Below are positions 2,549 to 6,141 of a stretch of 64,000 nucleotides of DNA, in pieces. Origin of the DNA: Candidatus Magasanikiibacteriota bacterium (GTDB lineage: Bacteria; Patescibacteriota; Patescibacteriia; Magasanikbacterales; UBA922); assembly GCA_018661775.1 (NCBI GenBank), contig JABJHO010000014.1:42305-106304 (forward strand), given 5' to 3'. How positions within the stretch are numbered: the first letter of the stretch is position 1; each line of letters starts with the position of its first letter. The notes beneath the pieces are model-generated. The model saw only the letters and a program-made list of their open reading frames with translations. It did no database searches and was not told the origin of the DNA. A program made the position numbers and the translations under genes.

Positions 2549-4252
2549 TTATAACTTTTTTATCATATATGTGCCAACTTTTCTGTAACCAAGTTTTCTA
2601 TAATACCCACGAACACCAACACCCGAGATTACCGCACTTTTTTGTATTCCTGCGTTTTGTATTATTTCTTCGGCCACTTTCATGAGTTTTTTACCAAACC
2701 CTTTGTGTTGCGATGCCTGTTGTCTTTTTTCTCCAATTTTTACGAGCTGACCGTACACATGAAGTTCACGAATAAATGCACAGTGTGAAATTTCTGGGAT
2801 GATTTGTACAACATCTTTACAATGCGCTTTACTAAGCCATACATGTTGTTCTTTTTCCTTTTTGCCGATGTTGTGCGGGATACGGAGTCGTAGGAATCCA
2901 TACACAGCTATACGTTTTGGATCCTCAAGCGTAATAAAGTATTCTGTGCCACCTACTGTTGAGTATGTGTCTACAAAGAGCTGTGGTATCGTGTTTTTTG
3001 GTATATTGTCTTGCTGTCTTGAAATCTCTCTGCACCGCAAGCAGACACATCGCGCATTAGTGTTGTGTAGCTCTTTTGTGAGAGATTCTCGTAGGTTGGT
3101 TATACTGTTTCCGTCTCTAATTTCGTTAGATGGGATATCACGAATAAGTCGAGAAATTCTACAGTATCGTGGTGTAGCTTTTTTCATTGCAAGTAGTGCT
3201 GCAAACAATGCTTTTTCTCCGTATGATTTGTATCTTCCTTCCTTAAACCATGCATAGAGTTCAGCGCTTTCAATGACGGTGTTTGGATAAATCTTTACCA
3301 TGTCTGGGCAAAGTGCTGGATCAGAAAATAGTGATTTGTACATGGTTACATCGTGTTCTGGCGTGGTTCCTGGTAGGTCTGGCATAAAATGGAGATCAAC
3401 TTTGAACCCTGCACAGCGAAGCATATACATTGCTTTCCTGAATTCATCCACAGAGTGCCCACGCTTAATCAGTGATAAAATTGCATCATCTGGCGCCTGA
3501 AGACCAAGCTCTATTCTTGTGCATCCCTGTTTTCGCATGTGGTAGAGTGTTTTTGGTGTGATACAGTCTGGTCTTGTTTCAAGTGTAATTCCTATTATCC
3601 TATGTTTTGCATACTCATTGTACCGTTGTTCTTTTTCTATGCGTTGTGTCAACTCCTCAAGTGGCCGCTTTTCCCAGTACAACTCTTTTGTGGGGGGTAT
3701 TTCTTTTCTTCGTGTGAGGTTGTTGCATGCATTAAAAGACTCCATAATATACCAGTATTGGTATTTTAAGGTATAGGCATTCCATGTACCACCTTTTGTG
3801 ATGTATTCAATTTTATCTACCGGATGCCCATTCTTCTCAAGCATTTCAATCCTTTTTTGCATTAGAAGGTATGGGTTGAAATCGAGCTTGAGTGAGCGAG
3901 CTGCAGCAGGTTCTGAAGCAATATAGCTTTTTGGCATGCGTACTTCTGTTGGGCAGTAGACACACTTGCCTGGGCAAGCATATGGTTTTACTAGTGAAGT
4001 GATTACGGCAATCCCTGATGTACTTCGTATACCAGCTTTCATACATAATTGCTCTAATGCTCTATTTTGTACTACTTTCTTGTCTTTTACCAATTTCTTG
4101 TAGACACCAAGTATGGCCCTGTTTGAGGGTTGTGATATGTGAAGTGCACTACACTCCTTTCTTCGTATATCATCAAACTCACCTTTTGTTTTGGGCTTTT
4201 TTTGAATAATGGCATGTATGATCTGTGTAATGTGTTGTGTTGTTTCAGACAT
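2549..4252 (-). CDS. Elp3-family tRNA uridine34 carboxymethyl-modifying enzyme (radical SAM + C-terminal GNAT acetyltransferase)
   Basis: 567 aa. Radical SAM cysteine cluster CPGKCVYCP, TRPDC elongator region, C-terminal GNAT (HVYGQLV...GFGKKLM...QNAGI). Architecture identical to archaeal and Dehalococcoides Elp3. Confidence 0.85.
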   Translation of the reverse strand: MSETTQHITQIIHAIIQKKPKTKGEFDDIRRKECSALHISQPSNRAILGVYKKLVKDKKVVQNRALEQLCMKAGIRSTSGIAVITSLVKPYACPGKCVYCPTEVRMPKSYIASEPAAARSLKLDFNPYLLMQKRIEMLEKNGHPVDKIEYITKGGTWNAYTLKYQYWYIMESFNACNNLTRRKEIPPTKELYWEKRPLEELTQRIEKEQRYNEYAKHRIIGITLETRPDCITPKTLYHMRKQGCTRIELGLQAPDDAILSLIKRGHSVDEFRKAMYMLRCAGFKVDLHFMPDLPGTTPEHDVTMYKSLFSDPALCPDMVKIYPNTVIESAELYAWFKEGRYKSYGEKALFAALLAMKKATPRYCRISRLIRDIPSNEIRDGNSITNLRESLTKELHNTNARCVCLRCREISRQQDNIPKNTIPQLFVDTYSTVGGTEYFITLEDPKRIAVYGFLRLRIPHNIGKKEKEQHVWLSKAHCKDVVQIIPEISHCAFIRELHVYGQLVKIGEKRQQASQHKGFGKKLMKVAEEIIQNAGIQKSAVISGVGVRGYYRKLGYRKVGTYMIKKL

Positions 4253-4274
4253 AGTACTTGTAATATAATCATGA

Positions 4275-5006
4275 ATGTGCTATCTTAGTCAAGTCAAAAA
4301 GGATTATTTTATGAATGAATATAGGGCAAAACAAATATTAGAGCAAAACCATGCGGTATATAACACCATCGCAGCGGATTTTTCACGAACCCGTGGATTT
4401 TTGTGGGCCGACCTACATCCGCTCAAGGAGTATGCAAAAGATGTGCACACCGTTGTTGATATTGGGTGTGGCAATGGTCGACTATATCAGCTTTTTTCTC
4501 ACATGGATGTGAATTATATCGGTATTGATTTTAGTGAAGAGCTTGTGGCTATTGCAAGGAATCGTTTTCCGGGGGCGCGGTTTTTTGTCTCAAACATGAT
4601 TAAAACTTCCTTACAAGACAGTATGGCCGATGTTATATACTGTATTGCAGCATTTCAGCATCTTCCAAGCAGAGAAATGCGTATCCAAGCACTTCAAGAG
4701 ATGCGCAGAGTGTTAAAGCCTGGTGGATCCATAGTTATGATGAATTGGAATCTTTTTAGTGACTGGGCACGAGAAAAATATGAAAGCGACGGGAGTGGAG
4801 ATTTTTTTGTACCTTGGAAAAATGAGGAAAAAGAGGTTTTGGGGTTGCGATACTACCATGGTTTTTTACTCGAAGAGCTTCATGAATTAGTACAGTCTGT
4901 TGGGCTAAATATAGTTAAACAACATTACTGTAAAAAAGGTGAAGTAAGTAGTCTGGGGCCTGGTGAAAATATACTTACCGTTATGCGAGCTGCCGAAGAT
5001 GTGTAG
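4275..5006 (+). CDS. Trm9/ALKBH8-type tRNA (carboxymethyluridine34) methyltransferase, class I SAM MTase
   Basis: Co-linear with yeast Trm9: VYNxIAxxFSxTR, (V/I)D(I/V)GCGNG(R/K)(L)Y, IGxDxS..L(V/I)..AR, DFFVPW, RYYH. Likely start at ATG 4311 (MNEYRAKQ). Confidence 0.75.
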   Translation: MCYLSQVKKDYFMNEYRAKQILEQNHAVYNTIAADFSRTRGFLWADLHPLKEYAKDVHTVVDIGCGNGRLYQLFSHMDVNYIGIDFSEELVAIARNRFPGARFFVSNMIKTSLQDSMADVIYCIAAFQHLPSREMRIQALQEMRRVLKPGGSIVMMNWNLFSDWAREKYESDGSGDFFVPWKNEEKEVLGLRYYHGFLLEELHELVQSVGLNIVKQHYCKKGEVSSLGPGENILTVMRAAEDV

Positions 5007-5893: not shown

Positions 5894-5976
5894 AAAAGTG
5901 GTAACTAGGGTTGGTGTTGAAGATAGGACGGCGTTGTGGTATAGTGTATTATGCTTACTTATTAGTGTATGTGTAT

Positions 5977-6141
5977 ATGAATCTTACCTGTATTGAGTGT
6001 AAAAATCAAGTTGATCTATCATCGTATTCTGACCTTGCTATGGACAGTGTGGTTGAGTGTCAGACGTGTGGCATAACATTGCTTGTGACGAGTATCGACG
6101 ATAACACCGTGTCTGTTGAAATAATGGACGAGGGAAAATAG
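5977..6141 (+). CDS. small Cys4 zinc-ribbon protein, LysW-like amino-group carrier candidate (Trm112-like alternative)
   Basis: CIEC-x18-CQTCGITLLV followed by acidic tail (DDNTVSVEIMDEG). Pattern matches LysW CPECG...CxDCGAELEV...acidic C-terminus. Tool ORF starts at 5911. Small ORF, may not be expressed. Confidence 0.3.
   Translation: MNLTCIECKNQVDLSSYSDLAMDSVVECQTCGITLLVTSIDDNTVSVEIMDEGK

Follow-up and report, generated by a model that had tools for sequence, protein, structure and literature searches.

The window (the whole stretch of DNA analysed, 64 kb) contains an Elp3 gene and, directly facing it, a gene whose product is assigned by sequence to the class I methyltransferases of the Trm9 family. 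The host belongs to the Patescibacteria (CPR) and is related to Ca. Magasanikbacteria. The two genes probably form a wobble-uridine module in which Elp3 would produce cm5U34 and the Trm9-like enzyme would convert it to mcm5U34. This is a known pathway extended to bacteria and not a new mechanism. In the papers searched, the Elp3/Trm9 route to mcm5U34 is described as eukaryotic and archaeal, bacterial Elp3 being a Dehalococcoides curiosity with an unevidenced product (PMC7663514, PMC7694415). That both Dehalococcoides and dozens of Patescibacteria lineages have the pair is an argument for the whole two-step pathway in bacteria, where Elp3-Trm9-type tRNA chemistry is probably widespread.

The divergent gene pair

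The features of the pair are collected in Table 1. The Elp3 protein scored 483.9 bits (cut-off 350) with the NCBIfam model TIGR01211 (ELP3), over residues 11-567 and model positions 2-522 of 522. Pfam identified Radical_SAM (PF04055, E 4.5e-15, residues 92-300), Radical_SAM_C (PF16199, E 2.8e-13) and, at the C-terminus, Acetyltransf_1 (PF00583) with 20.7 bits, exactly its cut-off; Acetyltransf_10 and Acetyltransf_7 were below theirs. The closest PDB match was the archaeal MinElp3 (6ia8, E 5e-102) followed by DmcElp3 (5l7j, 3e-97), and the alignment with both reaches the C-terminus and retains the Fe-S cysteines, the zinc cysteines and the acetyl-CoA motif. Bacterial and archaeal Elp3 conserve the three cysteines of the zinc site, whereas the eukaryotic protein does not (PMC6367351). 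With an end-to-end model match and all motifs present, the full Elp3 architecture proposed in a preliminary description of this DNA was borne out.

Table 1. Coordinates of the features of the Elp3/methyltransferase pair (positions in the window).
Feature	Position	Strand	Details
Elp3 gene	2549..4252	-	567 aa; predicted radical-SAM + GNAT/KAT tRNA U34 carboxymethyl synthase
Elp3 GNAT/KAT domain	2570..2716	-	Acetyltransf_1 at cut-off
Acetyl-CoA motif QHKGFGKK (aa 515-522)	2687-2710	-	aligned with QHMGYGRML (MinElp3) and QHRGLGRKL (DmcElp3)
Linker cysteine motif CVCLRC (aa 402-407), archaeal/bacterial Elp3 zinc site	3032..3049	-	aligned with CRCIRC (MinElp3 and DmcElp3)
Radical-SAM [4Fe-4S] cysteine motif CPGKCVYC (aa 93-100)	3953..3976	-	aligned with CPhGKCIFC (MinElp3) and CPGKCIYC (DmcElp3)
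Divergent control region	4253..4310	.	58 nt between start codons; read from sequence
TATAAT	4264-4269	+	consensus match
Two promoter-like sites	4297->4268 and 4292->4265	-	consensus scan; consensus matches only
AAGGA	4298-4302	+	read from sequence
Trm9-family SAM-dependent methyltransferase gene	4311..5006	+	231 aa; mechanical ORF starts at 4275
N-terminal motif VYNTIAADFSRTR	4356..4394	+	Y17 and R28 = ScTrm9 Y18 and R29 (hhalign columns)
SAM motif I VDIGCGNGR and acidic D73 in GIDFS	4455..4535	+	D73 = ScTrm9 D72; invariant in 81/81 homologues
Substrate pocket Q116-H117, W146, VPW169, R180-Y181-Y182-H183	4647..4859	+	= ScTrm9 H115/H116, W145, W168, R241/Y243
GENILTV, with N220 just ahead of the last beta strand	4962..4982	+	N220 = ScTrm9 N271, proposed uracil-recognising residue

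Both open reading frames of that description exist, the start of the methyltransferase at 4275 being the part that is probably wrong. Homologues of 226-240 aa start at the second in-frame Met, and in the window the corresponding ATG (4311) is preceded by AAGGA and, further upstream, by a perfect TATAAT; for these reasons the start is probably 4311 and the spacer therefore measures 58 nt, not the shared region of about 20 nt first given. Because the spacer is at most 60 nt, the promoters of the two outward-reading genes would overlap or stand back to back, and from this arrangement we infer that expression of the pair would be coupled. No RNA element was identified by Rfam in the 58-nt spacer.

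Assignment of the methyltransferase and its predicted reaction

Eight residues are essential in yeast Trm9 (R29, D72, H116, W145, W168, R241, Y243 and N271), where substitution by Ala makes the cells zymocin-resistant and the enzyme inactive (PMC4678810). The window protein has every one of them, as R28, D73, H117, W146, W169, R180, Y182 and N220, and these equivalents are invariant in an alignment of CPR, Dehalococcoidia and fungal proteins. Among 81 bacterial homologues the conservation of each position is 57-100%, most of them being near-invariant. The N-terminal motif, VYNTIAADFSRTR, aligned with VYNQIASHFSNTR, the Trm9 helix that closes over SAM and carries the catalytic Arg. This Arg (R28) is invariant in 81/81 homologues; R29A renders yeast Trm9 inactive and D72A abolishes its SAM binding (PMC4678810). 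The substrate-pocket equivalents include W146 (81/81 homologues), an aromatic residue at 169 (80/81), H117 (77/81) and R180 (74/81). The weakest position is Y182 (ScTrm9 Y243), a Tyr in 46/81, and the position of ScTrm9 H115 is occupied by Gln (Q116) in the window protein. Near the C-terminus, hhalign placed the EN of GENILTV on the DN of fungal Trm9, this N being found in 78/81 homologues, and the AF2 model predicts a strand (E220-227) there. The motifs first quoted for this protein, namely the N-terminal one, VDIGCGNGR, DFFVPW and RYYH, were all identified in ORF 4275-5006.

The chemistry and the tRNA substrates that we infer for this organism would be the following. Elp3 would act alone, without Elp1/2/4-6, and would bind U34-carrying tRNAs; its GNAT domain would take acetyl from acetyl-CoA, and the 5'-deoxyadenosyl radical of its radical-SAM domain would attach the acetyl-derived group to C5 of U34, yielding cm5U34. 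The Trm9-family enzyme would transfer a methyl group from SAM onto the carboxylate of cm5U34, yielding mcm5U34, which may be thiolated further by genes elsewhere in the genome.

The alternative that survives best, although unlikely, is a methyltransferase which is coupled to Elp3 and yields something other than mcm5U, acting either on another Elp3-derived intermediate (e.g. a thiolated xm5U) or on another atom. The strong linkage to Elp3 across loci is consistent with such coupling, and the variable Y182, the Gln at the H115 position and the altered Dehalococcoidia sequences (a diverged N-terminal motif, YSFRHR, and GCGCG/GCGHG as motif I) would all agree with a different product. In Haloferax volcanii one species showed the mass transition of cm5U, and the trm9 mutant accumulated no cm5U (PMC6144793), so that substrate flow outside eukaryotes may be more complex. 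A 2020 review considered xcm5U34 in Elp3-bearing bacteria to be without direct evidence and DmcElp3 to be weakly active in vitro (PMC7663514). However, the equivalents of R29, H116, R241 and N271, the proposed holders of the cm5U carboxylate and uracil, show no variation across fungi, CPR and Dehalococcoidia, and therefore the same substrate and reaction, with mcm5U34 as the product, are argued here.

The assignment to the Trm9 family is also supported by whole-protein comparisons. With the single sequence, phmmer matched Yarrowia lipolytica Trm9 (5cm2_Z) in the PDB at E 1.2e-15, the next match being at 3.3e-10, and with the family profile Trm9 reached 105.7 bits and the next match 81.6. Foldseek on the AF2 model (pLDDT 91.2) ranked YlTrm9 first, with a predicted similarity of TM 0.85 (target-normalised) and 26% identity. 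hhalign aligned the bacterial family with 14 fungal Trm9 sequences over 205 columns (probability 100%, E 4.6e-42), a full-length match which includes the N-terminal VYxxIAxxFSxTR helix. Pfam and NCBIfam, which hold no Trm9 model, returned the generic Methyltransf_11/25, and the UbiE/BioC-type models were sub-threshold. The highest of the latter in NCBIfam was DVU_1556 (51.2 bits, cut-off 155); UbiE gave 44.5 bits (cut-off 216) and BioC 42.6 (cut-off 185), the homologues being likewise below the cut-offs, and the CmoM/CmoB models were far under theirs (23.9 bits, cut-off 366). Wherever Trm9 was among the candidates it ranked above every other solved methyltransferase, as expected from the kinship to Trm9/ALKBH8 that had been proposed from motifs; the outcome named beforehand as refuting this kinship, best matches to UbiE or other families, did not occur. 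The NCBI annotation is the generic "class I SAM-dependent methyltransferase", and several bacterial members of the family are already called TRM9 or ALKBH8 in the automatic annotation of JGI.

Conservation of the pair and the genes around it

Linkage was evaluated in 80 species-representative loci, almost all from Patescibacteria, of which 76 were informative and 4 had no upstream room. Elp3 was directly divergent in 59 (median of 28 bp between aligned ends), divergent with an insert of 0.7-2.9 kb in 8, and upstream on the same strand in 4; it was thus within 8 kb of the methyltransferase in 71/76 informative loci and was not found within ~8 kb in the other 5. The genes flanking the pair differ among lineages. 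Adjacency is far beyond chance, because the divergent arrangement recurs in 59/76 informative loci whose flanks otherwise differ. A divergent pair was also identified in Dehalococcoides mccartyi CP019867.1 and in three other Dehalococcoidia-type contigs (4/4 informative). In D. mccartyi, whose pair sits on a closed chromosome, Elp3 faces a 224-aa Trm9-like methyltransferase at 43 bp which contains HH, VW, VPW, RYY and N motifs. The pair is therefore not a peculiarity of one organism, being lineage-wide in Patescibacteria and Dehalococcoidia.

This adjacency in two phyla also bears on a second alternative, that of a generic UbiE/BioC/Methyltransf_11-type enzyme which methylates small molecules or proteins and merely lies beside Elp3. 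No such model reached its curated cut-off, Trm9 outscored all other solved methyltransferases by sequence and profile, and the match to Trm9 is full-length with the Trm9-specific catalytic residues conserved; on these comparisons the generic reading appears already largely refuted and very improbable.

The window encodes DnaG, sigma-70, NAD-dependent ligase, DnaB, SecDF, a Mur ligase, MraY and TsaE, for which reason the host is considered bacterial. The least probable reading, that of a non-bacterial pair (a mis-assembled or mis-binned archaeal or eukaryotic fragment, or genes acquired very recently and without function in the host), could draw on the archaeal structure closest to Elp3, on the archaeal-type UMP kinase encoded in the window, on one related locus labelled Pacearchaeota and on Elp3 in giant-virus contigs, but it is refuted by the same arrangement in dozens of separate Patescibacteria assemblies, with contigs of 0.6 and 1.1 Mb among them, and in the closed D. 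mccartyi chromosome, and is further opposed by the typically bacterial genes and even composition throughout the 64 kb and by an identity among homologues of 30-60%, which indicates a long residence. A viral origin of the pair was likewise unsupported, since among the Elp3 relatives on giant-virus contigs just two have a Trm9-like neighbour, a weak one.

Eukaryotic and archaeal Trm9 require Trm112, and the eukaryotic enzyme is insoluble without this partner. A crude motif search, run in six frames on the window and on 86 related loci (~1.2 Mb of flanks), gave no Trm112-like ORF; the pattern was modelled on E. coli YcaR, and the test is a weak one. The hydrophobic Trm112-binding patch of YlTrm9 is partly polar in the bacterial proteins, F78 being replaced by N, D or E and V59 by T or K, with I in 1/3 aligned CPR members and a gap in Dehalococcoidia. 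Ten large ORFs of the 64-kb window were compared with MnmE and MnmG, and neither was identified. It is tentatively proposed, with somewhat less than even confidence, that much of Patescibacteria, together with Dehalococcoidia, and hence a very large share of bacterial diversity, may combine Elp3 with a self-sufficient, Trm112-independent Trm9 and contain mcm5U-type nucleosides, which perhaps replace those made by MnmE/MnmG.

Two neighbours were mentioned together with the pair in the preliminary description, and neither has a demonstrable relevance to it. The first is a zinc ribbon (5977-6141), assigned by Pfam to Zn_ribbon_LysW (30.7 bits, cut-off 27) with no Trm112p match even at E up to 10. 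Its closest PDB sequence is LysW (5k2m_E), and Foldseek on a low-confidence model (pLDDT 69.7) listed LysW and not Trm112. It is kept only in Magasanikbacteria-like loci, always beside a PLP enzyme. Being of LysW type by Pfam and PDB sequence and paired with that enzyme, the zinc ribbon (5911-6141) was ruled out as a Trm112 substitute. The second is tsaE (801-1247; TIGR00150, 108.8 bits), a real gene whose linkage is not conserved: glyA lies between tsaE and Elp3, and other genes occupy this place in relatives, which rules it out as a member of the module.

Comparison with known wobble-uridine systems

The eukaryotic Elongator with Trm9-Trm112 or ALKBH8-TRMT112 (mcm5U34, mcm5s2U34) is formed by the same two catalytic families. 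The order of the Elp3 domains (radical SAM, Radical_SAM_C, GNAT) is the same, and the N-terminal helix motif of Trm9, SAM motif I and 8/8 essential residues are common to both. In contrast, the bacterial pair lacks Elp1/2/4-6, has no detected Trm112, carries the archaeal/bacterial zinc Cys motif in its Elp3 and consists of physically paired genes; its methyltransferase has neither the AlkB nor the RRM fusion of ALKBH8.

Archaeal Elp3 and Trm9-Trm112, as in H. volcanii (HVO_2888 / HVO_1032), come closer: Elp3 occurs without the other Elongator subunits in both and has an extended basic N-terminus in both, MinElp3 being the nearest structural relative. HvoTrm9 reportedly methylates cm5U-tRNA from yeast trm9-delta in vitro, and not that from elp-delta. 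In Sulfolobus solfataricus, Elp3 and Trm9 are encoded in one gene cluster (PMC2584109). Archaeal Trm9-Trm112 converts cm5U to mcm5U, which was demonstrated in H. volcanii, and HVO_0574 of the same organism, once predicted as Trm9, proved inactive and represents a paralogue trap (PMC6144793). The system described here differs in its bacterial host, in the tight head-to-head arrangement conserved across a superphylum, and in that no Trm112 was found in the window or related loci, whereas archaeal Trm9 requires it in vivo. The D. mccartyi protein (DmcElp3, PDB 5L7J), the sole bacterial Elp3 studied, is likewise bacterial but lacks the basic N-terminus of ~75 aa present in the window Elp3, and the methyltransferases of the two organisms share 30% identity.

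The canonical bacterial wobble-uridine systems are MnmE/MnmG(/MnmC), yielding (c)mnm5U, and CmoA/CmoB/CmoM, yielding (m)cmo5U. CmoM, like Trm9, closes its pathway by SAM-dependent methyl esterification. The enzymes and chemistry of these systems are otherwise unrelated to those of the pair, although the target, C5 of U34, is the same (MnmE/MnmG: PMC7663514).

In the literature searched, bacterial Elp3 is confined to the Dehalococcoides clade and the methyltransferase is unmentioned (PMC7663514). Bacterial Trm9 had no mention in the works searched on Elp3, candidate phyla and Patescibacteria tRNA modification, an earlier mention of the Dehalococcoides methyltransferase being possible. The view that an Elp3-coupled Trm9 is not an established bacterial feature is consistent with this silence, with the qualification that the automatic names of JGI exist for several members. 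The module would fill a gap in the predicted tRNA modification of streamlined, uncultured bacteria and would correct the generic annotation of its methyltransferase. A compact, possibly partner-free Trm9 and an Elp3 with a full N-terminus are offered for biochemical and structural work, and the pair bears on the evolutionary origin of Elp3/Trm9, either as an ancestral trait or as one passed between archaea and CPR bacteria. If independent of Trm112, this would be the first naturally stand-alone Trm9; the mcm5U-type nucleosides proposed for these bacteria have so far been recorded only in eukaryotes and archaea. The only Rfam matches in the window were two tRNA-Ser genes at ~34.3 kb.

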